The notes: generated by a model not told the origin, from the sequence alone. A DNA stretch of 64,000 nucleotides from an uncultured Acidimicrobiaceae bacterium (GCA_963750465.1 CAVVRE010000007.1:21818-85817), one strand, 5' to 3'. Counted from the first letter of the stretch, positions 5,409 through 64,000 are shown. Translations and numbers: made by a program.

Positions 5409-5494
5409 GGGCGCGTGGTGGAATGGCAGACACGATGGACTCAAAATCCATTGGCCGCAAGGCCGTGAGGGTTCAAGTCCCTCCGCGCCCACCC
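5409..5494 (+). tRNA. tRNA-Leu (anticodon CAA), class II with long variable arm
   Basis: Hand-folded. 7-bp acceptor stem GGGCGCG/CGCGCCC, 3-bp D stem GTG/CAC, anticodon stem ATGGA/TCCAT with loop CT-CAA-AA, variable stem-loop GGCC-GCAA-GGCC, T stem GAGGG/CCCTC with loop TTCAAGT, discriminator A. CCA is not fully encoded (ACCC). Confidence 0.85.
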
Positions 5495-5939
5495 TGTGTT
5501 GATCACAAAGTGCCTGGTCAGGAACTTGCTCGGATAAAGCACCAGTAGGACGTTCGGGGCTCCTGCCGGAGGTCGCACGTGACCTATCAGCCCCAATCAG
5601 GCACCGAGCCGCCCAGGGTCTGGTTGGCGACCCCGTAAAGGCCGGGCGGCGAATGGGAAGAACGGTCCGGTCCAGCCCCTCTGACATGTGGGAAGCTCCC
5701 TTTAGGCGATGATGGCTGCCGAAATGGTAACCGCCGGCCGCGCCCGTCGCCGCCTGGGATAGGTCGCGTCCCGCGGAGTGGTCGGCTTCGAGCGGTACGA
5801 TAAAGCTGGCGCGTGGGGCGCCGCCTGGTCCGCGGAAAGGGCTGAGCCCACCCGATAGAACAGCAGGCCTGTGCGTACAGTTCCTGGCCTCCTTTCGACC
5901 GGCATCGCGGACCGGCCGGTAGAGCGAAAGGAGTTCGCG

Positions 5940-7449
5940 ATGGCGACGGCGTCGCTGCCCCAAGACCCTGATCTCGACCAGCTCCGCAAGCAGGCCCGCG
6001 AGTTACAGCGCGCCGTCCGAAGCGGCGAGGCGGCCGCGCTGGCCCGGGTATCTAGATGGCACCCCGGAACGCCGGCCCCCAGTGCATTCCCGTTGACGGC
6101 CGCCCAGTTGGTCTTGGCACGCGAGCACGGCTTCGCCAGCTGGGCCCGCATGCGCCGGTACGTCCAGGTCGTAACGGCCCGCGCCTGGCCCCTGGACAGC
6201 CGGCACCGGAGCATGAAGCGCCGGCCGACCGGTTCCTTCGACTGGCGTGCCTGACTTACAGCGACGACGGACCTGCCAACCGTGCGGCCGCCGCCCAGCT
6301 CCTAGCCGAGCAGCCCGAGCTGCCCCGGCACAACCTGTTCGTGGCGGCGGCGTGCGCCGAGATGCCCGAGGTGCGCCGTCACCTCGCCGGGCGACAGGCC
6401 GCGGCGAGTGTTACCGGCGGACCACACGGTTGGTCGCCATTGCTGTACCAGGCCTACGCCCGCCACAACCCGGACGTCGACCTGGCGGCCACGCTGGAGA
6501 CGGCCCAGCTGCTGCTCGACGCCGGGGCCGACCCCAACGACGGCCGCTTCTGGCACGCTCTGCCCACCCCGTTCACGGCGCTCACGGGGGTGCTCGGCTA
6601 CGGCGAACACCGCCAACCCTGGCATCCGCACGCCATACCTTTCGCCCGGCTGCTATTGGAGTCGGGCGCCGACCCCAACGATGGCCAGGCCCTGTACAAC
6701 CGCATGTTCGGCACCAATGACGACCACCTGGAACTGCTCTTCGAGTACGGCCTTGGCCGTGACACCCGTGGCCCCTGGCACCGGCTGCTCGGCGAGTCCC
6801 TGGAGTCGCCCGCCGAAATGTTGCGGAGCCTGCTGGCCTGGGCGGTCACTCACGATCAGCGCCACCGCGTCGCCTTGCTCGCCGAGCACGGTGTCGACAT
6901 CATGAGCCCGTTCACCGAGCCACGCAGCCCTCGGCGGGGCACGCCGGTCGAAGTCGCACTGGTCAACGGCCACCGCGAGCTCGCCGACCAACTCCGCGCC
7001 CTCGGCTCCCCCCGCCCCGGCTAGGGGCGGCCGACACCTTCGTCGCCTCCGTCCTCGCCGGCGACACCGACGCAGTTCAGCAAACGCCCGCCAATGTAGT
7101 CGGCGCGGTGCGGCACAAGCGGAGCGGGCTGGTCACCTGGGCCGCGGCCCAAGGTGCACCCAACGCGGTCGAGCTGCTCGTCTCGGCCGGTTTCGACGTC
7201 AACGCACTCGGTCGCAGCGACATCCCGAGCAACGAGCCGTGGCACACGGCCCTACATGTCGCCGCCGAGACCGGCAACCTCGCCCTCGCCCAGACGTTGC
7301 TCGCACTGGGAGCCGACCCGGACATCCCCGACAAGCACTACCGGTCCACCCCCCTCGGCTGGCGCCGGTACTTCGGCCAGCCTGCGTTGGTCGAACTGCT
7401 TGAGCCGCTTGCACCGACACCTTGCACCCTCGTCCCCCTTCGAGAGTGA
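5940..7449 (+). CDS. Ankyrin-repeat protein, with two apparent frameshifts at ~6200 and ~7015. The second lies in a C6/C4 homopolymer run
   Basis: ATG at 5940 is preceded by GAAAGGAG. N-terminus 'DLDQLRKQARELQRAVRSGEAAALARV...LTAAQLVLAREHGFASWARMRRYV'. Repeats include 'LLLDAGADPNDG' and 'LLLESGADPNDG'. The third-frame piece 'FVASVLAGDTDAVQQ...HTALHVAAETGNLALAQTLLALGADPDIPD' ends with TGA at 7447-7449. Confidence 0.65.
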
Positions 7450-9769: not shown

Positions 9770-10983
9770 CTACCCGGGCACCTCTAATTGCGCCCACGGG
9801 GAGCTGTAGCCCCCGGCCAGGAGGTCGAGGAACGGCCTCGAGTCAAAGGCTTCCGGCCCAAGCACGCCACTCCCCGTCCACGACCCGTTGTCGATCAACT
9901 CGAATGCGACGACAGGATTGACCGCCGTCTGCCACACCACCGCCTGCGATCCGTACTCGCGCATGGACCACTCGTTGTCGACTACGTGGTAAAGGTACGT
10001 GGACCGGGGCTGGCCGTCCTTGCCCGTCCCTCGGCCCAAAGCCCAGCACACGTTTTTCCTGTCATACGGTCGCCGAGCGTGGCCGGGTCGGGCAGGGCCG
10101 CCGCCACCACATCGCGCGGGCTGACCTCGACCTCGCCGACCCGCACCCTGTCGGTACGGTCCAGGCCGAGCTTGTGCAGCACCTTCAGGACGTCAATGAA
10201 GTCTTGGCCCAATCCGTATTTGAACGTCACCCGCTTGACGTCCAACCACCGGGGAATTAGAAGGACCTCTTCATGCTCGACGTTGACGCACTCGATTGGG
10301 CCGATACCGTCAGGGAAATCGAAGGTCTCGGGTTCGCTGAACGGTTCGGTCGTGTACCAGCCCCGCTCCTTCTCGTAGATCACTGGGGGGTTGAGGCATT
10401 CCTCGATCGTCGCCCAGATCGAAAACGTCGGGGCGAATTCATAACCCTCGACCACCAGGTTGGCGCCATCTCGCACGGCGGCGTCGTCGAGCTCGCTGAA
10501 GAGGTAATCGGCGGCGTAGCGGGCGAAAACGTCGGCCAGGCCAGGTTCGACCCCCATGCCCACCAAAGCAATACGTCCGCTGTCCACCCAGTCGTCGCTC
10601 AACGCGAACTGGTCGTCACCCAGCTTCACCCCGGTCTGGGAGTAAGGATCGGTTGGGTGCGGCTTCGACATGGACATGGCCATGTCCATGTAGTGCACTC
10701 GGCTTTCGAGCGCGGCCCGGAATATCGGCATGGTGAAACGGGGATCGGTGGCCCCGAGCACACCATCTATGCGGTACTCAGTGATAAAGGCGACAAGACC
10801 AGCCTGATCGGAGGCGTCCAGCTGGGCGGCGACGAACCTCTTGTCGTCGACCGCCTGAACGGCCTTCTCCGCTCGCGACAATGAGTAATCCGCCACTACC
10901 ACCTGGGAGGGAAAGTCCCGACGGGCGGCGATCCGAGCTGCGGCGCTGCCGACGCCGCCGGCCCCGACTATGAGAATGCGCAT
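9770..10983 (-). CDS. Saccharopine dehydrogenase-family NAD(P)-binding oxidoreductase, with an apparent frameshift at ~10035
   Basis: N-terminus 'MRILIVGAGGVGSAAARIAA'. The C-terminal Sacchrp_dh_C-like region 'STYLYHVVDNEWSMREYGSQAVVWQTAVNPVVAFELI...GVLGPEAFD' lies in the other frame (ORF 9770..10051). Confidence 0.7.
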
Positions 10984-14122: not shown

Positions 14123-14656
14123 CCCTGCTCCTCCAACCAGACGCCCAGCGAGTCAGAGCCGAGGTGGCGGTTCATGACCAGCCACGCGCTCGGCGGCCGG
14201 GCCCAACCTGTCCAACCAGGTGGAGAGCAGGTCATGAAGAGCTTGCTTACCGACCCTCACAGGAGGATTGGACCAGATGCCGCCGAAGACCAGACTGGCC
14301 GGCACCTGTTCAGGAAGGGCCGTCTTGACGTTGGCCAGGCCGTTCGCCGCGGCGTTGGCCGCGGTGAGCTGAAGGGCCCGGGTGTTGATGTCGACGGCCC
14401 ATACTCGGGCCTCTGGCGAACGGCGTCCGAGCACGCAGGCAATCGGCCCGTAACCACAACCGAGATCCAGCAGCTCACCCGCAGGTGGGGGCCACGGCGA
14501 CTCCCTGAGCAGGGCCATCGTCCCGGGGTCGACGCGGCTGCCCGAGAACACCCCCCGGTCGGCCTGCAGGCTGAGCTCCATATCAGGCAGGCGCAGATCG
14601 ACGGTTACCGGTTGGGACGGTGCGGACGGCACAGCGGAGAAGTAATGGTCGCCCAT
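14038..14656 (-). CDS. Class I SAM-dependent methyltransferase, RsmC/methyltransferase-small-domain-like, with an apparent frameshift near 14200
   Basis: 'LLDLGCGYGPIACVL...VWAVDINTRALQLTAANAAANGLANV...VFGGIWSNPP'. The C-terminal 'AWLVMNRHLGSDSLGVWLEEQGWDVRREASKSGYRVLQV' lies in the other frame (14038..14235). Confidence 0.6.
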
Positions 14657-14686
14657 CGGCGGCCGAGCCTAATGGTTCCTGCCTCC

Positions 14687-14756
14687 TGGCCCAGTGAGCC
14701 CGGCCCAGTCAGGCCGGGCCAGTCGGGCGGGCCCAGTCAGGCCGGGCCGGTGAGGG
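14687..14756. repeat. 14-bp GC-rich tandem repeat (CGGCCCAGTCAGGC-like, 5 degenerate copies) in the divergent region between the rsmC-like gene and def
   Basis: Units read at 14687, 14701, 14715, 14729 and 14743. Confidence 0.7.
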
Positions 14757-14806
14757 CCCTCCGCCACCACCGGCGGATGGGCCACCTACCCGTACAATGT
14801 TGCGCC

Positions 14807-33852: not shown

Positions 33853-34731
33853 ATGGTCCAGGAGAGCCCGGCCCGGCATCCGTGGGTGCTCGGGGCGCGC
33901 CCGCGGACGCTGCCGGCCTCTGTCGTACCGGTCCTCGTGGGTACGGGCGCAGCGGCCGCCTACGGCGCCGCCATATGGTGGCGGGCGCTCCTGGCCGGGG
34001 TCGTCGCCCTCTCGCTCCAGATCGGCGTGAACTACGCCAACGATTACAGCGACGGCGTGAGGGGCACCGACGCCGCCCGCGTCGGCCCGGTCAGGCTCGT
34101 GGCGGGAGGTTTGGCATCCCCGGGGGCGGTCAAACGGGCCGCCCTGGCGGCGTTCGGCGTCGCCGGCGCGGCCGGCCTCGTCCTGGCCGCGGTGGCCGGG
34201 TGGTGGCTGGTGGCGCTGGGCGCGGTATGCGTCATCGCGGCCTGGTCCTATACCGGGGGACCACGCCCGTACGGCTACGTGGGCCTGGGTGAGGTCTCGG
34301 TGTTCGTGTTCTTCGGGCTGGTCGCGACCACCGGCACTGCCTACGTCCAGACCGACATGCTGACGTCGCTCGAGGTCCTGGCCGCCGTACCGGTCGGGCT
34401 CATAGCGGTGGCCTTGCTCGTGGTCAACAACCTGCGCGACATCCCCGGGGACACCGCTGCGGGCAAACGCACCCTGGCCGTACGCATCGGCCCGGCGGCG
34501 ACGCGGCGCCTGTACGAGGCGTGTGTGCTGCTCGCCGTCCTGCTCGTCGTGCCCATAGCGTTCATCCGCCCGTGGGCCCTTCTGGGCCTGGCCGCCTTCC
34601 CGGTCGCCATCGCTCCGGTGCGGGCTGTCGCCTCGGGGGCGGAGGGGCGGGCGCTGATCCCGGTCCTCGGGGCCACTGGGCGGGCGCAGCTCGTGCTGGG
34701 CGTACTACTCGCCATCGGCCTGGCCCTCTGA
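33853..34731 (+). CDS. menA: 1,4-dihydroxy-2-naphthoate polyprenyltransferase
   Basis: UbiA-family membrane protein 'NYANDYSDGVRGTD...VVNNLRDIPGD'. ATG at 33853. Confidence 0.85.
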   Translation: MVQESPARHPWVLGARPRTLPASVVPVLVGTGAAAAYGAAIWWRALLAGVVALSLQIGVNYANDYSDGVRGTDAARVGPVRLVAGGLASPGAVKRAALAAFGVAGAAGLVLAAVAGWWLVALGAVCVIAAWSYTGGPRPYGYVGLGEVSVFVFFGLVATTGTAYVQTDMLTSLEVLAAVPVGLIAVALLVVNNLRDIPGDTAAGKRTLAVRIGPAATRRLYEACVLLAVLLVVPIAFIRPWALLGLAAFPVAIAPVRAVASGAEGRALIPVLGATGRAQLVLGVLLAIGLAL

Positions 34732-53170: not shown

Positions 53171-53374
53171 GCGGGCACCTTCCCGGGCGAGGCCGGTAGG
53201 GGCGCCGCGGCTAACGAGCCAGGAGGGCCGCCCCGAACGTGTACGCTGGTAGAAGCCCGGTTTTGCCGCGGCCTAAATTACACCCGGGCGCCTCCACGGT
53301 CGCCCCAGGCCCTGAACCTCAGAGTGCCAAGGAGCGCTAGCGCCCGGGAACGACAACCGATGGAGAGGAGTGGC

Positions 53375-54757
53375 ATGGCCGTCGTAACAATGCGGCAGCT
53401 TTTAGAGGCGGGAGTCCATTTCGGGCACCAGACAAGGCGCTGGAACCCGAAGATGAAGCGCTTTATCTTTGGCGAGCGCAATGGCATTTACATAATTGAC
53501 CTGAACCAGACGCTGCAACGCGTCGATGTTGCCTATTCGTTTGTGAGGGACCTGGTCGCCAACGGCGGCAGCGTGCTTTTCATTGGCACGAAGAAGCAAT
53601 CTCAAGACCCCATAGCCCGTTCGGCGCAGCTATGCGGGATGCCGTTTGTCAACGAGCGTTGGCTAGGCGGGATGCTCACGAACTTCTCGACCATCGCGTT
53701 GCGCGTGAAGAAGATGCAAGAGTACGAGCGAATGCGGTCGGCCGGCGATTTTGAAGCAATGCCGAAAAAAGAGGCGCTGATACTCACCCGGGAGCTGGAG
53801 AAGCTCGAGCGCAACCTCGGCGGCATACGCGACATGAACCGCCTGCCCGAGGCGGTCTTCATTATCGACATCAAGAAAGAGCACATCGCCGTATCGGAAG
53901 CCAACAAGATGGGCATCCCGATCGTGGCCGTCGTCGACACCAACTGCGACCCCGATCTGGTCCAGTACCCGATCCCCGGCAACGACGATGCCATCCGCAG
54001 CGGCACCTTGATGTGCCGGGTGATCCAGGAGGGGGTCGAGGAGGGGCAGTTCGTGGCCTCCAGGCGGGGTACCGGTTCCGGCCCGGCTGCGGGTGGTCCG
54101 GCGTGGCCCGCCTTCGAGCCGCCACCGGCCGTGACGCAGCCGGCCCGCAGTTTCGCGCCCCCGCCGGCGAGGCCGGCTCCCACCGGGCCAGCCCAATCGG
54201 GCGCGGCCCAGTCCGGCGCGGCCCAATCCGGCGCGGCGCAAACCGGCGCGGCCCAAACCGAGGAACCTCAGACCGAGGCCACCCAGTACGCCTCCGCGCC
54301 AGCCGTCAGTGGACCGCCGCCCGAACCGGTAGCTGCTACGCCGCGCCCTGAGGCTGGGCGAGTGGAGGTGTTCGAAGCCCCCGCAGGCGGAGCGGAGCCG
54401 GAAACAGCTGCGGCAGCGCCAGCGCCGGCGGCAACAGCTCCGGCGGCAACAGCTCCGGCCGCAACAGCTCCGGCAACGTCAGCGCCGGCCCCAGCAGCTC
54501 CGGTAGCGCCAGCGCCGGCCGCCCCAGCGGAACCTGCCGTCCAGCCTGCGCCGGCCACGCCGAGAGCGCCATCAGCGACGGAAGCGGCCGACGCCGCATA
54601 CGCGACACCAGGGGCGGAAGACCAACCAACCGCGACCACCGCCGCCGACGAGGCAACACCGGCCGGCACCGGCCGTGACCCCTCCGCGACCACCGCAGCC
54701 ACCGTGGGCCCAGAGGGCGCAGCCGAAGTCGCGGCAACGCCAGAAAACTACAGTTAG
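53375..54757 (+). CDS. rpsB: 30S ribosomal protein S2 with a ~200-aa Ala/Pro/Gln-rich low-complexity C-terminal extension encoded by in-frame 15-bp tandem repeats
   Basis: '[27 protein letters not shown]' after GGAGAGGAG RBS. The tail contains '[23 protein letters not shown]' and '[16 protein letters not shown]'. Confidence 0.9.
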
Positions 54758-55578: not shown

Positions 55579-56308
55579 TGGCCGGCCGGTAGCACCGTGG
55601 AAACGCGTCGTCCTCAAGATCTCGGGGGAAGCCCTGGCCAGCGGGGCAGCCGACGAAGTCATCAACGGCCCTATCGTCGAGCGGTTGGCCAGGGAGATCG
55701 CTGAGGCACATTCGCAACTCGGGACCGAGATCGCTGTCGTCATCGGGGGCGGCAACATCTGGCGAGGGGCAACCGGTTCGGCGACCGGCATGGACCGGGC
55801 TACAGCGGACTACATGGGCATGCTGGCTACCGTCATCAACGCCCTCGCCGTGCGCGACGCCCTGGAACGGGCGGGCCAGCCGACCCGCGTGCAGACCGCC
55901 ATCGGCATGTCGGAGTTGGCCGAACCGTACATCAGGGGCCGGGCCATGCGGCATCTGGAAAAGGGCCGGGTCGTCATTTTCGCGGCCGGGACAGGTAACC
56001 CCTTTTTCACGACCGACACGGCCGGCGCGCTGAGAGCGGTCGAGATCGGGGCCGAGGTGCTCTTGAAAGGGACCCACGGCGGCGCCGACGCCCTGTACAC
56101 GGCCGACCCAAGGCTCCACCCGACGGCCGAGCCCATCTCGGAGATCAGCTATGACGAGGTGATCGGCCGGGACCTCCGGGCCATGGACCTGACGGCGATC
56201 ACCCTTTGCAAAGAGAATTCGCTGCCCATCCTCTATTTCAGCATCATGCAGGAAGGCAACCTGCGGAGTGCGCTCGAAGGTGAACAGATAGGTACGCTTA
56301 TCCACTGA
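55571..56308 (+). CDS. pyrH: UMP kinase
   Basis: 'RVVLKISGEAL...VIGGGNIWRG'. Its TGA stop (56306-56308) is the last 3 nt of the left direct repeat. Confidence 0.9.
   Translation: MGDGRPVAPWKRVVLKISGEALASGAADEVINGPIVERLAREIAEAHSQLGTEIAVVIGGGNIWRGATGSATGMDRATADYMGMLATVINALAVRDALERAGQPTRVQTAIGMSELAEPYIRGRAMRHLEKGRVVIFAAGTGNPFFTTDTAGALRAVEIGAEVLLKGTHGGADALYTADPRLHPTAEPISEISYDEVIGRDLRAMDLTAITLCKENSLPILYFSIMQEGNLRSALEGEQIGTLIH
56291..56308. repeat. Left copy of the 18-bp perfect direct repeat GGTACGCTTATCCACTGA (attL-like) at the pyrH 3' end
   Basis: Identical to 63246-63263. Confidence 0.85.
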
Positions 56309-56362
56309 GCAGCCGTCAGACAGAAAACGGCCCTACCAGGAGAAACAGGCCGTTTTGAGGGG

Positions 56363-56644
56363 TTGACCGGACAGCACAGCGTGAGGGTACGGACGCTGCG
56401 TAACGCGGTCGTGGAGCAGGGGCAGGGGCGGGAGGACGAGCTAGAGAAGGAACTCGAAGCAAATCCCGCCACCAGGGAGGCCTATGAAAAGGCTGCGGCC
56501 GACGACGATCCTTCGGTAGCCCCGGCCCTGGCCGGTGACGGCATCGACTTGATAACCAACATCGTGCCGGCGGCCGAATTGGTGGAGGCGATCGTGAGCC
56601 AAGCGGAAAGGGCGCTGTCGACGGCGGGTCGACCGCTGTCCTGA
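56363..56644 (+). CDS. Hypothetical small acidic protein (TTG/GTG start) at the left edge of the islet
   Basis: ORF only. No recognisable domain. Confidence 0.25.
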   Translation: MTGQHSVRVRTLRNAVVEQGQGREDELEKELEANPATREAYEKAAADDDPSVAPALAGDGIDLITNIVPAAELVEAIVSQAERALSTAGRPLS

Positions 56645-56758
56645 TACCTCCCGACGATTTTCAGATGCTCCTAGGGCAACCTAGTGGTGTCGCTGACTTG
56701 CGGTTTGTGAAGGCACGTCGCGGCCCGAAGCCAAGCCGCGACTCCGTGCTGTCCTCAG

Positions 56759-57187
56759 TTATGGACCCGTCCGTGGACCTCGGTCTGTCTGGGCGTCGAT
56801 GAGTTCGGAGCGAAGCAATCGGATTTCGTCGATCAGTTCCCGGATCACCCTTGCCCGCATCGTCTTCTCGCCCCCGAAACCCTCAGCGTCGTAGAGCAAG
56901 GCGAGCCTCTCATGAGTCAGCCCGCTCGGTGCGTGGCTCGGACGTATGTTCCGAACCCGGTCTTCGTCAAGTGGCAGGCGCCTTATGGTCGGGCCGGGCC
57001 ACTGCGCCCAGAGCCGGAGCGCCGTTACGACGGGCACACTGTAACGGTCATGCCGCCACTCACGGAAAACCAAGGGCCGCTCAACGCACCAGCGCAGGTT
57101 CCCGTTCGCCCGATATGCCCGAACTTCATTGGTCGTACATAGCGGTCCGCTACGGTCTCGGAGAGCCACCCGGAAGGAGCCAATCAT
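56759..57187 (-). CDS. Hypothetical ORF ('...WRHDRYSVPVVTALRLWAQW...LTHERLALLYDAEGFGGEKTMRARVIRELIDEIRLLRSEL'). Its only plausible ATG overlaps the ATG of the divergent beta-helix gene (CATG), and GC3 is low. Doubtful
   Basis: ORF analysis only. Confidence 0.2.
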   Translation of the reverse strand: MIGSFRVALRDRSGPLCTTNEVRAYRANGNLRWCVERPLVFREWRHDRYSVPVVTALRLWAQWPGPTIRRLPLDEDRVRNIRPSHAPSGLTHERLALLYDAEGFGGEKTMRARVIRELIDEIRLLRSELIDAQTDRGPRTGP

Positions 57188-58655
57188 GAAGATTGCTGCG
57201 CTACTCAAGCTCGCGTCCGGTACGAGCGTCGCCCTTGTCGGTCTCAGTGTTGGGACACCCATGACGGCGTACGCAGCCCCTGCGAGGGCCAACGTCCCGT
57301 GCACTGGGCAGACCGCCTTGAGAACCGCAATAGATGCCGCGAATGCCGCCGGGGGCGGGACGATCAACCTGTCCCCCGGTTGCGACTACCCACTGACCGT
57401 GCCTGACAATGGCGAGAACGGCCTACCGGTGATCATGACTGGCATAGCCGTGAACGGTAACGGTGCCACGGTCAGCGGGACAGGCGCTGTCCGGGTCTTC
57501 GAGGTTGATGGCCCCGGCGGGAACCTATCGCTTCAAAACCTGACGATCACCGGCGGGTCGGCTGGCATCGGGGGTGGCATTGAAAACTTCGGGGGCACTG
57601 TGACCCTCAACCACAGCCAGGTGACCGCCAACACGGCCACTCAGGCCGGCGGCGGCATCGCCAGCGCCACCTTTGACCCGAGCAGCGTCGCCAAGCTCAC
57701 CCTCAATAACAGCCAGGTGGGCGGCAACAGCCAGACCGACCTGTCCATAGACCTCGGCGGTGATGGCGTCGGAGGGGGCGGCATTGTCAACGTGCTCGGC
57801 ACCCTGACGCTGAACGGCAGCCAGGTGAACGGGAACTCGGCCATGGGCTTTGCCGGTGGAGGGGTCGCCAACGGCGACTACCTGAACTTCTCCGGCACCA
57901 CAAGCGTGGCCACCTTCAACAACAGCCAGGTGGACGACAACACCGCACCTCACGCCGGCGGTGGTGGTGGCATCCAGAACCTGTTGGGCTCGCTCACGCT
58001 CAACAGCAGCGAGGTCGACGGCAACACCGCCCCCAACGGGGCGGGGATTTCCAGCGGCAACGGCAACGGCGGCACGCCGCCCGGCACCGCCCAACTCGTC
58101 CTGAGCAAGAGCCAGGTGGACGGCAACACCGCTACTGCCCTTCCGGGCCAAGGCGGCCCGCCCATTGCCGCCGGTGGCATCGCCAACGGCAGCAACGCCG
58201 TCATCAACAACAGCGAGATTGACAACAACGTGGCCCAGCACACTAGTGGGGCCGGCATCGTCAACCACGGGTCGATGACGCTCAACAAGTCGGAGGTGAA
58301 CGGCAACAACGCGGCTGGGAGCGGGCTCGTCGCATCGGGCGGCGGGATCGTCAACGCTCAGGGGGAACCCGGCGCGGTCAACACCGGCATCCTCACGCTC
58401 AATAACAGCCTGGTGAACAGCAACCGAGCCGGCGGTGACGGGGGTGGCATCGCCAACGGCATCCCCCTTGGCGGCCCCATGCCGTTGATCGGGGGTCCTG
58501 TCACGCTCAACCACAGCCAAGTCAACGGCAACTCAGCCGCCGATGGCGGAGGCATCTTCAACTTCGGCGGGACGGTGGCCCTCGCGACGACATCTATCAC
58601 CGGCAACAATCCCAACAACTGCGCCCCAGGGACCATCGCCGGCTGCGTCGGCTAG
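57186..58655 (+). CDS. Secreted right-handed parallel beta-helix repeat protein (Pmp/PbH1-like ~22-aa repeats 'GGGI.N.G.LTLN.SQV.GN.A')
   Basis: GGAAGGAG RBS, signal peptide 'MKIAALLKLASGTSVALVGLSVGTPMTAYAAP', and at least 15 imperfect repeats. Confidence 0.8.
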   Translation: MKIAALLKLASGTSVALVGLSVGTPMTAYAAPARANVPCTGQTALRTAIDAANAAGGGTINLSPGCDYPLTVPDNGENGLPVIMTGIAVNGNGATVSGTGAVRVFEVDGPGGNLSLQNLTITGGSAGIGGGIENFGGTVTLNHSQVTANTATQAGGGIASATFDPSSVAKLTLNNSQVGGNSQTDLSIDLGGDGVGGGGIVNVLGTLTLNGSQVNGNSAMGFAGGGVANGDYLNFSGTTSVATFNNSQVDDNTAPHAGGGGGIQNLLGSLTLNSSEVDGNTAPNGAGISSGNGNGGTPPGTAQLVLSKSQVDGNTATALPGQGGPPIAAGGIANGSNAVINNSEIDNNVAQHTSGAGIVNHGSMTLNKSEVNGNNAAGSGLVASGGGIVNAQGEPGAVNTGILTLNNSLVNSNRAGGDGGGIANGIPLGGPMPLIGGPVTLNHSQVNGNSAADGGGIFNFGGTVALATTSITGNNPNNCAPGTIAGCVG

Positions 58656-58665
58656 GGATGGCGGA

Positions 58666-58698
58666 CTAAGGAGGCGGCCGGTGAGGCCGCCTCCTTAG
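58666..58698. terminator. Perfect 14-bp stem / 5-nt loop hairpin (CTAAGGAGGCGGCC-GGTGA-GGCCGCCTCCTTAG) 10 nt after the beta-helix gene stop. Likely an intrinsic terminator, with only a weak U-tract
   Basis: Read directly. The arms are exact reverse complements. Confidence 0.6.
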
Positions 58699-59043
58699 TC
58701 AGTTTCAAAGACTACGAGCGCCAACCTGCGCTCTCTGTTTGGCGTTCTCGTTGTCCAGGCTTCGTGGTCGGGCTAAGGCAGTCGAGACGATGAGCCCGAA
58801 ACTCTCGAACTCAGCCGGAACCCGAAACGCGAGCGAACCGGTAGCGTTTGCCCGAATCCGCGACCAATACAAACACGAATTGTTAGCAGGAGCGCTTGGA
58901 ACGAGATTAGCCACCCACCCAAAGGGCGTATAACCCGAGTCAGCGGGGCTGGGTCGGCGGCAGCGGCCGATATCCCTGCTCCTGGGCACCAGGTGGTTCA
59001 TATGAGCCGGTCCTGCGTCTCGTGCCCAACATGCAGCTAGGGT

Positions 59044-59835
59044 ATGGCGGTGCACGGGGCCGCCTTGTATGGCGTCGCGTTCGCGGCGGCGCTGGTCATT
59101 TCGGCAGTGGCGAGCCCGGCTGGCGTTTCGGGGGCCGTACTGTTGTTACCCTTCCAAGTCTCAGTCCTTGGGACGCCGAGTCCATCCGTCACCCCGACGA
59201 ACCTCCTCTACAACGTCGTCGCCGTCCCTGGTGCTTTGTTCCGGTACTGGCGGCAAGGCCAAACCGGGGGCCGCCTCACGGCCCTCCTCTTGGCAGGGAC
59301 TATCCCCGGAGTCATCGTCGGCTCGGTGGTACGCGTCCAGCTACTGCCAGGCCTAGAGGAGTTCGAGGTGGTGATAGCGACGGTTTTGATCCCTCTTGGG
59401 TCGTGGCTGGCAATTCGTCCCAGTTCTGGCTCATCCGCCCAAGGGTTGGCCCTGTCAGGGGTCACAATGGCAGCGCTGGCGGCTGTCGTGGGCGTTATTG
59501 GCGGGATCTACGGCATTGGAGGAGGATCCATCCTTGCCCCCCTGATCGTCGGGGCGGGGCGTTCCCCGAAGACCGTGGCACCCGCGACGTTGGCTTCAAC
59601 ATTTGTCACCTCCATCGTCGGCGTGGCCACCTTCATTATTTTGTCGGCCGACCACCACGGTTCCATTGCCCCCGACTGGGGTATCGGCATCGCGCTAGGG
59701 CTCGGTGGCCTTCTGGGCGGCTATCTCGGCGCTCGTGCACAACCGTACTTGCCTGATCCGGTCATCAGGCGCGCCCTCGGCATTCTCGTCATCGCCATAG
59801 GCCTTCGCTACGCCTATCTCGCGGAAAAAACATAA
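59044..59835 (+). CDS. TauE/SafE-family (DUF81) membrane exporter, preceded by a ~340-nt leader
   Basis: Two halves with 'GAVLLLPFQVSVLG' and 'GIGGGSILAPLIVGAG' motifs. About 8 TM segments. Confidence 0.8.
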   Translation: MAVHGAALYGVAFAAALVISAVASPAGVSGAVLLLPFQVSVLGTPSPSVTPTNLLYNVVAVPGALFRYWRQGQTGGRLTALLLAGTIPGVIVGSVVRVQLLPGLEEFEVVIATVLIPLGSWLAIRPSSGSSAQGLALSGVTMAALAAVVGVIGGIYGIGGGSILAPLIVGAGRSPKTVAPATLASTFVTSIVGVATFIILSADHHGSIAPDWGIGIALGLGGLLGGYLGARAQPYLPDPVIRRALGILVIAIGLRYAYLAEKT

Positions 59836-59899
59836 GGCGGCCGCGCCGTCCCGTCTACCTCGAGAGCAAAAACCCTTTGGTAGATGGGCCTTTCTGATA

Positions 59900-60400
59900 C
59901 TACGCCCGGTCACCGTTGCCTTACCGGCGGGGCCAGGAGAGCAGCGGCGCGTTCGGCGGTCTCCCTGTTCCAACTGTTCGACAACGTGCGAGTACCGGTC
60001 GGCGGTGATGCTCACACTGCTGTGGCCTAGCCGCTTGCTCATCGCCAGCAGGGGCACCCCGGCGGCGAGGCCAGCGGTGGCAGCCCCATGACGCAGCCCG
60101 TGGAACGAGATGACCGGCAGCCCGGCACGCCGGGCAGCCCCTGGAAGGACCTCAGGATGTAGTCGGGTGGAGGCCGCGACCGTCCTCGTAGGTGAAGAAA
60201 GAGCCACGGCGCCCTATGCGACTCGCGTTCCGTGGAGGCCATCACCTGTGCCCCGAACGACGACCGCCTGGCGTGCGGCGCGCGTCCGAACTGCAAACCA
60301 CTTGCCTCGTTTGTTCTCACGTTCGCCGTGCCAGCCAGTGCCGGCCCGTCTCCATCAGTGACCAAAATCCCATTGGAAGACGGGCCTTTTCGGAACTAGC
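59900..60400 (-). pseudogene. Decayed tyrosine integrase. Only the catalytic C-terminal half remains, with a frameshift at ~60060 and a lost stop. The N-terminal domain is absent
   Basis: 'GLQFGRAPHARRSSFGAQV...APWLFLHLRGRSRPPPDYILRSFQGLPGV' (frame 1) then 'GLPVISFHGLRHGAATAGLAAGVPLLAMSKRLGHSSVSITADRYSHV' (frame 2). Confidence 0.6.
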
Positions 60401-61678
60401 TGATACCAGCCGTCACTGCGCAAAACGGCGAACGTGTTGAACGTCATCTCATGTGCGGCGCGGCCAGAACCGCTAACACGCCCTCCCCAACTGGAGTGCG
60501 AACCGTGAAACCTGGCTGGCGACCAGGTCTTACTGGAAACCGGCGAGCGAAGGTGACCACCCCGGATTGCGGCACTCTCCAGGCGCTGCAACGCGACCGA
60601 GTTCGTGCGCAGATGCAGCTCGTATGCTCTTCCCTGGCATATTGCGGCTGGATCTGCGACATGGTCGACCAGTGGCCGCCTTCGCTCGAGCGAACCAGAC
60701 ACACAACCTCCCGTGTCGACGCGACTTTCGACCTTTGACCGGGCGATGTGCCGACAGCACCGCCGGTTCGGCGTCTGTGCGTGCCTTCGGGCGTACCGCA
60801 TGTCGTGACTGGGGCGGGGAAATAAATCTTTCGCCGCGGGTGAGTCGGCGGCGGTCGCGCTGGACGTGGCTATGACCGCACTGGCTTCTCTGCACGCAAA
60901 CCCCGGCGGGTCATCCGCAATCGTGCCCGGCGCCACTGATGAGCCGGAATGCCGGGCCACCGGTATCGCCCAGGGCTCCCAGGGGTACCGGCCGCCTCAT
61001 GGCATGGTTTTGGAATTGTGCGAACTTCAGCGGGACCCTCGACAACGTTGAGGACCCGCGTTCTACGAGCCGGACCACCAACCGCTTCGTGACGGCCCAG
61101 TGGTCCGGCGAGTTGCTCGCCCCAGGTGATGCTCTCGCCCGCCTGCCCCACATGAAGCGCCCACCATGGCTCAGGAACACGGGCACGTAGCGTCGGCCTG
61201 CCAGTCGCGGAAAGGGGGCGTAGGCGCAAGAGGAGGTTATTGGCCATTCAGCCCGAGTTGGACAAGTCTCCCCGTAGTGATGGCGGGAGGGCCATTGTGC
61301 TGGCCGGGCTGTCCTGGGCCTAGGACCTGTGATGGCTTCCAGTGGCCTGGGGCCGAGGCACTTGCGTCCGCGACAACGCGCCCGGCGACGCCGAGGTCAG
61401 ACCGAGACGGGGCGCCTCAGGTTTCACGGACTTTCCCGTTAGTGACTTGAGATCGTTTGCCGCCTCGACCAAATCGCGTACCGGGCGTCGCCCGCCAGCG
61501 TCGCGGGACCAAATTGACCAGATCTCAACTCGTCCTTTTCCACGCGGCGTAGGAGACGGGGCGAGCGCAGCTTCGACAGGCTGAGGCTCTGCGCCTACCC
61601 GGGTCACAACCAAGCAGCATGACTTGTCGAAGCGGTGTGGAGTCGTTCGTGCCGTCATGGGGGACGCTGCGCTATGAG

Positions 61679-62019
61679 CTAGCGCCGCGATGCAGGGCGC
61701 GCGGCGCTGGACGTTGCAAGTAGGAGAAACACGGGCGGCTGCTCCTTTGCCGCGAACCCGGCCGGGATGGGCACCTGGCACTCGCAACAGACCCGGAACT
61801 CGTCACTGCTCTCTGCTGGCATCGCTCCCGGCAAGGGCGGTGAAATCGGTAGGTGCTCTTGACCGATTTCCGCCGACAAGGGCTCCGCTGGGGGCTCCAG
61901 GCGGGCCACCGCGCCGTTGCCACTCACGACTTCGTCCGAGTAGCCACGTGCCTTCATCACTTCGGTTCTAGTCATTGTGTCCCAGACCTGCTTGGGGTGG
62001 ACCACTGGATCTGTCATCT
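61679..62019 (-). CDS. Hypothetical small protein with a C-terminal 'RVCCECQVPIP' Cys cluster
   Basis: ATG-initiated 113-aa ORF in an otherwise ORF-poor 1.6-kb stretch of the islet. Confidence 0.3.
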
Positions 62020-62241
62020 TCGTCGCACGGAAGCGGCCTGGCAATGGGGCAGGGCGCAATGCCTCTCTCGGGACTCCCGTGCCGTGGTTATCTCCCACCT
62101 GCAAAAAGCCCATGTCAAGTGCAGCGCCACGGCGTCCCTAAGTGCGTTTAGTGTAGAAACGCACAACTTGGGTTAGAGCCCCAGCGGCGCGAACCCACGC
62201 CATCCATGCTTCGCCGAACCAAAACAGCGGGAGGTTCAGTC

Positions 62242-63105
62242 ATGACAAAGCGATTCGGTTCCCTCACCGCCGCAGCCGGCGTGCTGGCCATTGCGAGCGT
62301 GTTCGCTCTCCAGGGTGCCGCCCACGCCGACGGCTCACTACCCACGCTCACGGTGGCGCTGAAAGGCATCACCGGTGTCTCGGTGTCAGGCAGCATGGTC
62401 TCGGGAGCGGTCTCCATCACCGCAACCTTCACGGGCAAGGCGCCCCCGCCCGGGCCAAACAGCAACGGGCCGTCCTTCGGGATTGTCCACCTGAAACCGG
62501 GGGTAACGATCCAGCAAGCCGCGGGCGCCGTCAATGCCAGTGGGGGGGACCTCAACGCGTTGACCGCCTACGGCAGCCTCTTCGTATCTGGGTCGGCCCC
62601 GGCAACCGTGCAGACCGTCCTGACCCCCGGCAGTTATGTGGCCCTCAATGACACCGGGAACGGCCAACCTGGGTTCGCGCCGTTCACCGTGACCCAGTCC
62701 ACGTCGCCCGCGGCGCTGCCAGCGGCGGCCGCGACGCAAACGGCCATCGAGTTCGGCTTTCGGGGGCCCGCCGTGTTGCACGACGGGACGATGGTGCGGG
62801 CCCAGAACCACGGCTACCTCGTGCACATGATCTACCTGCTCCGGGCTCCTCATGAATGGACCGCTCTGCAGGTGATTGCTCTGCTCAGGACGGGCGAGGA
62901 CAACGAGGCGATTCAGCTGCTGGGCCCGAACACGGCGTTCATCGTCCTGCTAGGACCCGCCTCACCGGGAGCGATGCAGCAACAGGTGCTGAACGCCCCA
63001 CCCGGTTACTACGTCGAGGCCTGCTTCATGGACACCCAGGACGGTCGGGAGCACACCCAGCTCGGGATGGTGCGCCTGGTCCAAGTGGTGGTACCCGGAA
63101 GCTAG
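62242..63105 (+). CDS. Secreted hypothetical protein (signal peptide 'MTKRFGSLTAAAGVLAIASVFALQGAAHA')
   Basis: GGGAGG RBS and signal peptide. The body is beta-rich and Gly/Ser/Thr-rich. Confidence 0.6.
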   Translation: MTKRFGSLTAAAGVLAIASVFALQGAAHADGSLPTLTVALKGITGVSVSGSMVSGAVSITATFTGKAPPPGPNSNGPSFGIVHLKPGVTIQQAAGAVNASGGDLNALTAYGSLFVSGSAPATVQTVLTPGSYVALNDTGNGQPGFAPFTVTQSTSPAALPAAAATQTAIEFGFRGPAVLHDGTMVRAQNHGYLVHMIYLLRAPHEWTALQVIALLRTGEDNEAIQLLGPNTAFIVLLGPASPGAMQQQVLNAPPGYYVEACFMDTQDGREHTQLGMVRLVQVVVPGS

Positions 63106-63245
63106 CCCATACTTCGCTTTACAGTAGGGCGCAATGGCCGTCAGGCCATCCTGCGGGCCTTTCATCACACCAGATAAGGTTGCCGTTTGTGGTCCCTTCC
63201 GACCTGCGAACACCCTGGTCAAGTACAGCGCTCAGGCCGCGCTAC

Positions 63246-63263
63246 GGTACGCTTATCCACTGA
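63246..63263. repeat. Right copy of the 18-bp direct repeat (attR-like), ending in the A of the frr ATG
   Basis: Identical to 56291-56308. Confidence 0.85.
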
Positions 63264-63838
63264 TGGCCGACACCCTGGTTGACACGGCAGTAGAAGACTG
63301 CAAGGAGCGGATGGCACGCGCTCTCGAGCACACCAAAAGTGAGTTCTCGAGCATCCGGACGGGCCGCGCCGCTCCTGCGCTAGTCGAGAAGCTGAAGGTC
63401 GAGTACTACGGGGCCGATGTGCCCTTGCAGCAACTCGCCGGGCTGCATGTGCCAGAGGCCAGGGTGCTGGTCATCTCCCCGTACGACAAGGGGCCGGGAG
63501 TCATAAAAGCGATCGAAAAGGCGGTCCAGTCATCAGATCTCGGCATCACGCCGAGCAACGATGGTTCGGTTATCCGGTTGAATTTCCCGGTGCTCACCGC
63601 TGAAAGGCGCAAGGATCTCGTGAAGGTCGCTCATCAAAAGGCCGAGGACGGCAGGGTCGCAGTTCGAAATGTCCGACGGGCGACAAGGAAGGACCTCGAG
63701 GCGCTCGAAAAGGACGGCGACATTTCCACCGACGAGCTTTCCCACGCCGAAAAGGACCTCGACAAGCTCACTCACGACTACACCACCGAGATCGACCGCG
63801 TGCTGGCGCACAAGGAACAGGAGCTGCTCAACAGTTGA
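63263..63838 (+). CDS. frr: Ribosome recycling factor
   Basis: 'MADTLVD...SIRTGRAAPALVEKLKVEYYGADVPLQQLAGLHVPEARVLVISPYDK...'. Confidence 0.9.
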   Translation: MADTLVDTAVEDCKERMARALEHTKSEFSSIRTGRAAPALVEKLKVEYYGADVPLQQLAGLHVPEARVLVISPYDKGPGVIKAIEKAVQSSDLGITPSNDGSVIRLNFPVLTAERRKDLVKVAHQKAEDGRVAVRNVRRATRKDLEALEKDGDISTDELSHAEKDLDKLTHDYTTEIDRVLAHKEQELLNS

Positions 63839-64000
63839 GCTGGCGCGCCGGGCGACGCCGAGCCGAGGTCCAAGACACCGAGGTGGTGGCCGACGCCCCG
63901 CCCGACCCGTGGGGGGAGTCCGGGCCGCCGGTGGACTACGACCCCGAAGCGGTCACCACGCCGCTGGAGCTAGCCGAAGCCCGGGCGGCGGCCAGAGCCC

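Follow-up and report, generated by a model that had tools for sequence, protein, structure and literature searches.

The integrative and conjugative elements of actinomycetes (AICEs), for example pSAM2 and SLP1, have tRNA genes as targets and possess int, xis, rep and an FtsK-like tra gene. Phage 21 and e14 integrate into the 3′ end of icd and carry a replacement gene end, and Tn7 is a site-specific transposon inserting at the conserved end of glmS with a 5-bp duplication. Also, integration into the 3′ ends of the protein genes rpmG, rpsI, fda and rplL is well described, including that of integrase-less cis-mobilizable elements (CIMEs) (PMC7563491). In this study, we analyzed a 6.9-kb island located between pyrH (UMP kinase) and frr (ribosome recycling factor) in a stretch of 64,000 nucleotides from an uncultured Acidimicrobiaceae bacterium (GCA_963750465.1 CAVVRE010000007.1:21818-85817), in the following called the window. 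A previous interpretation without database searches (the sequence-only reading) had noticed the island and had known of no element described at a junction of protein-coding genes as attachment (att) site, a claim of novelty too strong in view of the integrations into the 3′ ends of rpmG, rpsI, fda and rplL. A search of 8 million full texts yielded no report of pyrH or frr as integration target, and the overlap of the pyrH stop and the frr start appears to be an unreported one. The island is a real, repeat-delimited and strain-variable insertion, and it probably derives from a site-specific integrative element, most likely of the tyrosine integrase type, as a non-autonomous remnant resembling CIMEs at a new bacterial attachment site (attB).

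The island is bounded by two copies of the 18-mer GGTACGCTTATCCACTGA (Table 1). Allowing up to two mismatches, the two copies were the only matches in the window, both exact and on the plus strand, with 0.00 matches expected by chance according to shuffled sequences. The sequence-only reading had correctly placed this direct repeat at the pyrH stop and frr start, where both junction genes are supported by Pfam; its left copy indeed ends pyrH and consists of the final five codons plus the TGA stop. At the right copy the junction reads ...CACTGATGGCC. The starts of the two copies are 6,955 bp apart, leaving a unique insert of 6,937 bp (56309-63245), and frr is thereby separated by 6.95 kb from pyrH, which has rpsB and tsf directly upstream.

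The occupied junctions are reproduced in independent assemblies, namely in an ENA contig of 670 kb (ERZ25039546 contig_65548; L117, L119 and L121), which contains both cores and the island with 99.4% identity over 15 kb, and in a Logan contig (L120), which covers the left junction at 99.97%. The empty site was found in another Logan contig of 1,152 bp (SRR6337268; L082), which is 99.3% identical to window positions 55875-56308 and 100% identical to 63246-63981 and joins pyrH and frr through one 18-mer (...CAGATAGGTACGCTTATCCACTGATGGCCGAC...). This contig represents a different strain with three single-nucleotide polymorphisms (SNPs) in pyrH. Since the 18-bp repeat is shorter than the k-mers usual in de Bruijn-graph short-read assemblers, assumed here to apply to L082 as well, its join is unlikely to be a collapse of two copies. 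Exact protein look-ups found the Frr protein of the window identical in L082 and in a further contig, L081, which carries a different element at the same site.

Beyond L082, 35 contigs of the same Acidimicrobiales clade have an empty site with one copy of the core each. Fifteen are peat and soil contigs from a scan of JGI metagenomes, in which the 18-mer lies between contiguous pyrH and frr genes 70-84% identical to those of the window. The other 20 contexts were reached by PyrH protein identity (lineages P0070 and P0041) and showed the same arrangement (20/20 empty). One of the contigs (L131) at first seemed to have a different junction, which was rejected as the apparent difference is due to sequence errors in frr. 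The one-base TGATG overlap of pyrH and frr was present in 36/36 empty sites. The junction with a single 18-mer (...ATCCACTGATGGCC...) that had been expected in relatives was thus found in the near-identical L082 and throughout the clade, and the case named beforehand as a possible refutation, with all relatives carrying the same segment without polymorphism, is contradicted by the same contigs. Six contigs (L085, L087, L089, L090, L092 and L097), at least one of them labelled as human gut metagenome, yielded the 18-mer within an AT-rich sequence that is unrelated and identical in all six; these matches are due to chance and irrelevant to the element.

At the pyrH/frr junction, the empty-site contigs all carry a block of 23 nucleotides, ATAGGTACGCTTATCCACTGATG (window 56288-56308 and 63246-63265), which is invariant across 13 distinct sequences of the clade, while the flanks are 70-84% identical. 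A rare ATA codon is part of the block, and the third codon positions are fixed in all six codons (five sense codons plus stop), compared with a mean conservation of 0.73 at third positions elsewhere in the pyrH tail. As 11 of the 13 sequences were picked by the 18-mer, its invariance in this comparison is biased, and the unbiased part consists of the five extra positions and the two protein-selected lineages. The conservation suggests a constraint at the nucleotide level beyond the protein, for example by translation re-initiation at frr. In more distant Acidimicrobiia, pyrH and frr are also adjacent (gap of −6 to 146 nt) with a different junction sequence. Given the invariant block in the close clade and the different junction in these distant relatives, the element targets a junction conserved at the nucleotide level, as do tRNA-targeting elements, and an invariant target of 23 nt is the kind of sequence exploited by site-specific elements.

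The second element at this site was found in the ENA contig contig_88269 (ERZ25039468; L081); where the two overlap in right arm and frr (63190-64000), its DNA and that of the window are 98.2% identical. Upstream of the core, L081 has 3 kb that resemble the island in two blocks only. The element ends in the same core, with 19 nt of identity to the pyrH end. Its last 100-120 nt before the core match window positions 63125-63245 at 75-82% (blastn: 81.7% over 115 nt), including an exact 20-mer (Table 1), and positions 2690-2830 match window 61905-62050 at about 72%, where a peptide TRTE..RGYS(D/E)(E/D)VV.GNGA is conserved on the minus strand. In the window, a gene for a cupredoxin-like protein lies between the two homologous blocks. 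That two elements of different content share a homologous arm, the core and the site argues for a core that is element-borne, as part of the element's own attachment site (attP), and against a target duplication. We also considered whether the right arm contains a degenerate attB and rejected this, as the shared 10-mer ACACCCTGGT was not significant against shuffles. The first open reading frame (ORF) of L081 encodes an excisionase-type helix-turn-helix (HTH) protein (TIGR01764, E=5.7e-6; HTH_17, E=2.6e-5; both just under the cut-offs; PHROG 66). A Tsf look-up aimed at the left end of L081 returned only the window-type contig. In L081 dxr is split (5533-6752) and in L117 frr is split (14218-14794), which indicates indel errors of these long-read-style ENA assemblies, and frameshifts seen only in these contigs should not be read as pseudogenes.

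We propose that the element entered by conservative site-specific recombination, that is, by Campbell-type integration of a circular form. The attB core would comprise the final 17 nt of pyrH together with the base common to the TGA stop and the frr ATG, and the incoming attP would have held the same 18 (19) nt as the pyrH end. A crossover within this identity would leave pyrH complete at the left junction (attL) and rebuild the ...CACTGATG... context of frr at the right junction (attR). The copy now present appears to be non-autonomous, with both att cores perfect and the recombination module gone except for a stump of 98 codons, which possibly is not even its own. Further movement might occur via an integrase from a related element such as that of L081 or by homologous recombination through the conserved flanks.

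Several observations weigh against this explanation, first of all those on the integrase stump, the only trace of a recombinase in the island. The Phage_integrase match covers only model positions 116-169 of 172; the N-terminal three quarters are absent and there are at least two or three frameshifts. By three-frame translation and comparison with homologues, the remnant is spread over three frames (FFTYEDGRGLHP / PDYILRSFQ / AARRAGLPVISFHGLRHG...DRYSHVVEQL / RETAERAAALL). DNA homology to three related loci (L106, 80%; L083, 87%; L105, 72%) ends at 60196-60198 in 3/3 cases. The sequence-only reading had described a decayed tyrosine integrase in the middle of the element as the sole recombinase, which is correct except for its extent, given there as 59.9-60.4 kb. 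The integrase family of the stump recurs in this lineage mostly in fragmentary form, and all 32 database homologues of the stump are short fragments of 48-146 aa. L106 encodes an integrase that is nearly full-length but divided in two by one frameshift (234-1423) and L083 an integrase fragment (10001-10270), each beside a gene for an ATP-dependent DNA ligase, and in L105 the relative (815-1309) lies 94 nt from a tRNA-Pro(GGG). In view of the central position of the stump (3.6 kb from attL, 3.0 kb from attR) and of the three relatives whose contexts were looked up, which are located beside the ligase gene or tRNA-Pro and not at pyrH/frr, it may be unrelated to the integration of the island; it documents decay and is not assignable to the pyrH/frr att site. 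Also, no intact integrase for this att site was found in any accessible sequence, and the enzyme class is deduced indirectly. No attP junction was observed, as the only candidate for an excised form (L118) lacks 16 nt of the core. The excisionase-like protein of L081 stays below curated thresholds and has no homologue but itself among 5.8 billion sequences, and the L081 contig begins inside the element, so that only the right arms of the two elements can be compared.

The island might, alternatively, still be mobile, as a non-autonomous islet moved in trans by a recombinase of the L081 type or of the chromosome, with L118 as its excised form. This contig of 6,936 bp from the same sample as L117 aligns to window 56309-63247, that is, to the limits of the island, with 94.8% identity. 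The coincidence of its ends with the island boundaries favors mobility, as do the two perfect att cores, the conservation of the right arm between elements of otherwise unrelated content, and the four states observed among near-identical hosts, in which the site is empty, is occupied by either of two island haplotypes or holds a different element. However, L118 is about 5% diverged from the copy integrated in the same sample, its ends do not overlap and no joined core is present, which resembles the edge of an alternative haplotype in a long-read assembly graph, and we read it as such rather than as a closed circle. Most differences between L118 and the window are substitutions distributed in a mosaic, with 0 differences over 59000-59750 (the permease gene) and 8-12% in 56500-57000, 61000-61500 and 62000-62750. 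Such a mosaic (0% to 12% per 250 nt) agrees with homologous recombination among resident alleles, and no trans-acting integrase was identified. We therefore regard present mobility as unlikely. The earlier statement that the island is immobilised finds no support either, given that at least two haplotypes exist, that the att cores exactly bound a separate contig and that a related element occupies this site in another strain. A bolder version would make the 23-nt junction the dedicated att site of a family of small actinobacterial elements cycling in and out, with islets moved in trans, L118 excised and the right arm evolved to supply frr signals; we hold this to be a speculative and rather unlikely scenario.

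Two successive insertions, which the sequence-only reading had also brought up, are improbable. In this case an older element, comprising the integrase near 59.9-60.2 kb and everything up to attR, would have been joined later at attL by a second one (56309 to about 59850). The central position of the stump with its 3′ end toward pyrH would agree with this order, since in L105 the 3′ end of the integrase gene abuts the tRNA target, and the blocks homologous to L081 are confined to the right-hand part. Tandem arrays of CIMEs and integrative and conjugative elements (ICEs) are common elsewhere (PMC7563491). However, an internal copy of the core is missing: the best internal match has 5/18 mismatches and lies at 57379, far from the expected junction, and the segment 59836-59903 has no homology to the core. 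The haplotypes of the window and L118 are also alike in their overall structure.

It is very improbable that the 18-bp repeat arose through target-site duplication by the action of a site-specific transposase (Tn7-like, casposon-like or other) or as a by-product of illegitimate or short-homology recombination. In favor of such an origin, the repeat ends exactly at the insertion and no integrase for this site was found, but the repeat search revealed no terminal inverted repeats joining the island ends and no end-binding repeats, genes for a transposase, Cas1 or a polymerase are missing, and the core is shared with another element (L081) whose right arm is homologous. To our knowledge, 18 bp also exceeds the duplications made by DDE transposons. 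Finally, an assembly artefact, be it a chimeric join or a duplicated segment as the sequence-only reading had considered for the second 18-mer, has nothing in its favor except the general risk of metagenome assemblies and is refuted, since the junctions agree in three independent assemblies, among them the 670-kb contig and L120, and another data set provided the empty site, which differs by three SNPs in pyrH.

Under the favored explanation, a remnant of a site-specific element, the insertion would uncouple the essential gene frr from termination-reinitiation at the pyrH stop and from the rpsB-tsf-pyrH transcript. The native mode of frr translation is likely coupling, given the overlap in all 36 empty sites and the lack of a Shine-Dalgarno-like sequence in the 23-mer, as judged by eye. 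In occupied DNA, ORFs with credible coding potential do not terminate at the core TGA; the GC content at third codon positions (GC3) is 0.48 for the long ORFs of this frame. A gene call of L117 that ends at the core TGA was considered as restored coupling and rejected, being an out-of-frame ORF in an indel-rich stretch. Expression of frr may result from read-through of the island, with the co-oriented cupredoxin-like gene upstream, or from conserved signals in the right arm, while a hairpin 3′ of pyrH may terminate the upstream transcript. The right arm contains no sigma-70 consensus promoter in a scan that does not cover actinobacterial promoter types, and no significant RNA structure (z=0.11). 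The context of the left-end hairpin (121 nt) gave z=−1.76 in the RNA fold. The non-coding stretch between the cupredoxin-like gene and the right core measures 140 nt, and its conserved part could be an attP arm, a source of frr expression signals, or both.

Table 1. Features of the pyrH/frr locus and the inserted island (positions in the window; aa, amino acids; GC2, GC content at second codon positions)
Feature	Position	Strand	Evidence and remarks
pyrH (UMP kinase), intact, 245 aa	55571..56308	+	Pfam AA_kinase, E=2.6e-27
attL core, left 18-bp direct repeat GGTACGCTTATCCACTGA	56291..56308	+	Repeat search, family D9
Hairpin AAAACGGCC-N15-GGCCGTTTT just after pyrH stop, putatively terminator-like	56324..56356	+	9-bp stem kept in RNA fold
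Small ORF, 93 aa (87 aa in other assemblies)	56363..56644	+	GC3 0.77, GC2 0.48, coding-like; gene call in L117 and L120
Doubtful ORF, 202 aa	56759..57367	-	GC3 0.70; N-terminal part overlaps start of beta-helix gene; no call in L117
Secreted repeat protein (predicted), 489 aa, cargo	57186..58655	+	Repeat families D1-D5; GC3 about 0.82-0.83
Perfect 16-bp inverted repeat, 5-nt loop, 3′ of beta-helix gene	58664..58700	+	Inverted repeat I12
TauE/SafE-family membrane permease, 263 aa, cargo	59044..59835	+	Pfam PF01925, E=6.6e-33
Tyrosine integrase remnant, last ~98 codons, frameshifted	59904..60198	-	HxxR box and catalytic Tyr box; Pfam Phage_integrase, E=3.3e-9
Decayed DNA, ~1.5 kb, without convincing coding signal	60199..61678		No GC3 periodicity
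ORF, 144 aa	61679..62113	-	Gene call in L117; ~45-aa stretch (…TRTEVMKARGYSDEVVSGNGA…) conserved in L081
Secreted two-domain cupredoxin-like protein (probable), 287/299 aa, cargo	62242..63105 (ORF from 62206)	+	Homologues start at 62242
Non-coding right arm	63125..63245	+	Homologous to L081 right arm; shares exact 20-mer ACCCTGGTCAAGTACAGCGC
attR core, right 18-bp direct repeat	63246..63263	+	Repeat search; last base is A of frr ATG
frr (ribosome recycling factor), intact, 191 aa	63263..63838	+	Pfam RRF, E=2e-60

Scans of all island ORFs against Pfam, NCBIfam and PHROG recognized only the integrase stump and the TauE permease, and families of phage, conjugation, relaxase, replication or transposase functions were not detected, in line with the earlier impression that the cargo is not phage-like; informative PHROG matches were likewise missing. 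Plasmid and phage collections gave no similarity beyond the level of TauE, a search of 50,697 phage records only a 250-nt match at chance level, and IMG/VR contains neither the core nor the right arm. No tRNA gene is present in the island or in the region of 53-64 kb. At gathering thresholds, Rfam matched only a tRNA-Leu in the window (5409-5491), and a 100-nt 'tRNA' with four-base anticodon (ttgg) called by ARAGORN at 34075-34174 is probably a false positive without Rfam support.

Within the island, the 93-aa ORF has no Pfam or PHROG match and in NCBIfam only a far sub-threshold one to TIGR03151 (FabK; 19 bits vs a cut-off of 453.1), and the 202-aa ORF has no credible family, with only sub-threshold NCBIfam and PHROG matches. 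The 489-aa protein is made up of ~10 repeats (LTLNNSQVxGN...GGGI), each encoded by roughly 100 nt, and is interpreted as a secreted parallel beta-helix, with signal peptide and fold predicted from the sequence. It has no match in Pfam, NCBIfam or PHROG, and an identical copy is encoded in two other assemblies. The inverted repeat behind its gene looks like a terminator. No Rfam element, such as a riboswitch or leader RNA, was found in the 340-nt gap 5′ of the TauE gene, and the permease of haplotype L118, which is diverged elsewhere, shows 100% identity. The ORFs within the decayed stretch behind the integrase stump lack Pfam and PHROG matches, and the 144-aa ORF is a candidate backbone gene. 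The GC content of the island is 64.5% compared with 67.6% for the rest. The GC3 values of the island genes are 0.82, 0.81, 0.77, 0.72 and 0.70 with a median of 0.79 for the core genes of the window. The sequence-only reading had described the island genes as visibly lower in GC3, which is weakly supported and applies among the three cargo genes only to TauE (0.72), as the beta-helix gene (0.82) and the cupredoxin-like gene (0.81) are above the median.

The 299-aa protein is a member of an unannotated family, of which 626 representative homologues were found. Its AlphaFold model (predicted local distance difference test, pLDDT, 91) has two beta-sandwich domains, and the best PDB matches by Foldseek are two-domain small laccases with E about 1e-7 (best 7e-8) and a template modelling (TM) score of only 0.25. 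The putative ligands are conserved among 45 homologues (His195, 45/45; Cys261, 41/45; His271, 39/45; Met276, 44/45) and would form a putative type-1 copper site. Judging from model and residues, the protein is probably secreted, cupredoxin-like and copper-binding. Its gene is also highly polymorphic between strains: between the window and L117, 36 substitutions and 6 indels fall within 62166-63093, and only about ten scattered single-position differences were found elsewhere in the shared 15 kb. L118 carries a third allele, and the polymorphism is either a true allelic hot spot or the consensus of mixed strains.

The best PyrH homologues are proteins from metagenome-assembled genomes of Acidimicrobiales/Acidimicrobiia. 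As the closest UMP kinases are only 89% identical among 5.8 billion proteins, the species is barely represented in databases. A genome search with PyrH was swamped by the common pattern GNPFFTTD and had best relatives of 62-64% identity. Exact look-ups of PyrH, the 299-aa protein and an extended 234-aa frr ORF of the window gave no record. The order xerC-like recombinase gene, sigma factor gene, rpsB, tsf, pyrH, frr, cdsA, dxr, rseP and ispG is conserved throughout the clade (L107-L131; window ~50.9-53.2 kb), in which cdsA is long (616-681 aa). Due to this synteny, the xerC-like gene near the island is considered a host gene and not one of the element. The rpsB gene of the window (53324-54757) encodes 477 aa, with the S2 domain at residues 26-241 and, behind it, ~230 aa of low complexity with many Pro, Ala and Thr residues; this tail contains short tandem repeats (AQSGA x3-5, APAAT x3) and reaches a GC content of 74-76%, and RpsB of relatives has 299-434 aa.

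The locus adds the unreported pyrH-stop/frr-start overlap to the ends of housekeeping genes used by integrative elements, in a little-studied lineage of soil and peat Acidimicrobiales whose mobile elements are essentially undescribed. Unusual aspects are the uncoupling of an essential, coupled gene and the multi-state hot spot, while a new mechanism is not indicated. The occupied strains represent a natural experiment on the weight of translational coupling and operon context for frr. Also, the locus can serve as a handy strain marker, with near-identical genomes being empty, carrying one of two island haplotypes or another element.

Compared with the known systems, the island resembles Tn7 in its position directly 3′ of a highly conserved essential gene and in its strain-variable occupancy, but differs by the lack of a transposase and of end repeats and by an 18-bp repeat instead of a 5-bp duplication. 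As for phage 21 and e14 at icd, the element carries the end of the target gene and leaves the product unchanged; unlike these, phage genes are missing, the identity segment is 18 nt long and ends at the stop, and an overlapping downstream gene is affected. With AICEs, which occur in the same phylum, and other tyrosine-integrase islands it shares an identity segment repeated at both ends, and corresponding functions are seen as an integrase trace in the island and an excisionase-like HTH protein in the sister element L081. The flanking repeats are identical to the core of the empty site, as expected for an integrase-type island, and a functional integrase is missing. In contrast to AICEs, int, xis, rep and tra are not intact, and the target is a junction of protein genes. 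As the defining features of AICEs, prophages and transposons were looked for and not found, assignment to any of these three classes is excluded. With respect to integrative mobile elements exploiting Xer (IMEX), no dif-type 28-bp dyad of two inverted 11-bp arms and a 6-bp spacer was apparent by eye in the 18-mer and its flank. The 18-mer region agrees with what we take to be the E. coli XerC arm at only 8/11 bases, and all relatives have an xerC-like gene about 4 kb upstream, which belongs to the conserved synteny.

The closest counterparts are the CIMEs and decayed ICEs or integrative and mobilizable elements (IMEs) at the 3′ ends of fda, rpsI, rpmG and rplL in streptococci (PMC7563491). The island differs from them by its Acidimicrobiales host from another phylum, by a core that spans a stop/start overlap, by the uncoupling of an essential downstream gene and by the lack of a visible tandem partner ICE or IME. 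A complete parent ICE or IME with the same att specificity was not found, and homology to the L081 element comprises the right arm and one internal block. As in the streptococcal CIMEs, att direct repeats flank the element and the housekeeping gene is kept intact, and only cargo remains without functional integrase and transfer modules (PMC7563491): both att sites are retained, and recombination, conjugation and mobilization genes are all non-functional or absent. In size, the island falls within the 1.2-13 kb of the streptococcal CIMEs, which likewise share their sites with related, more complete elements (PMC7563491).

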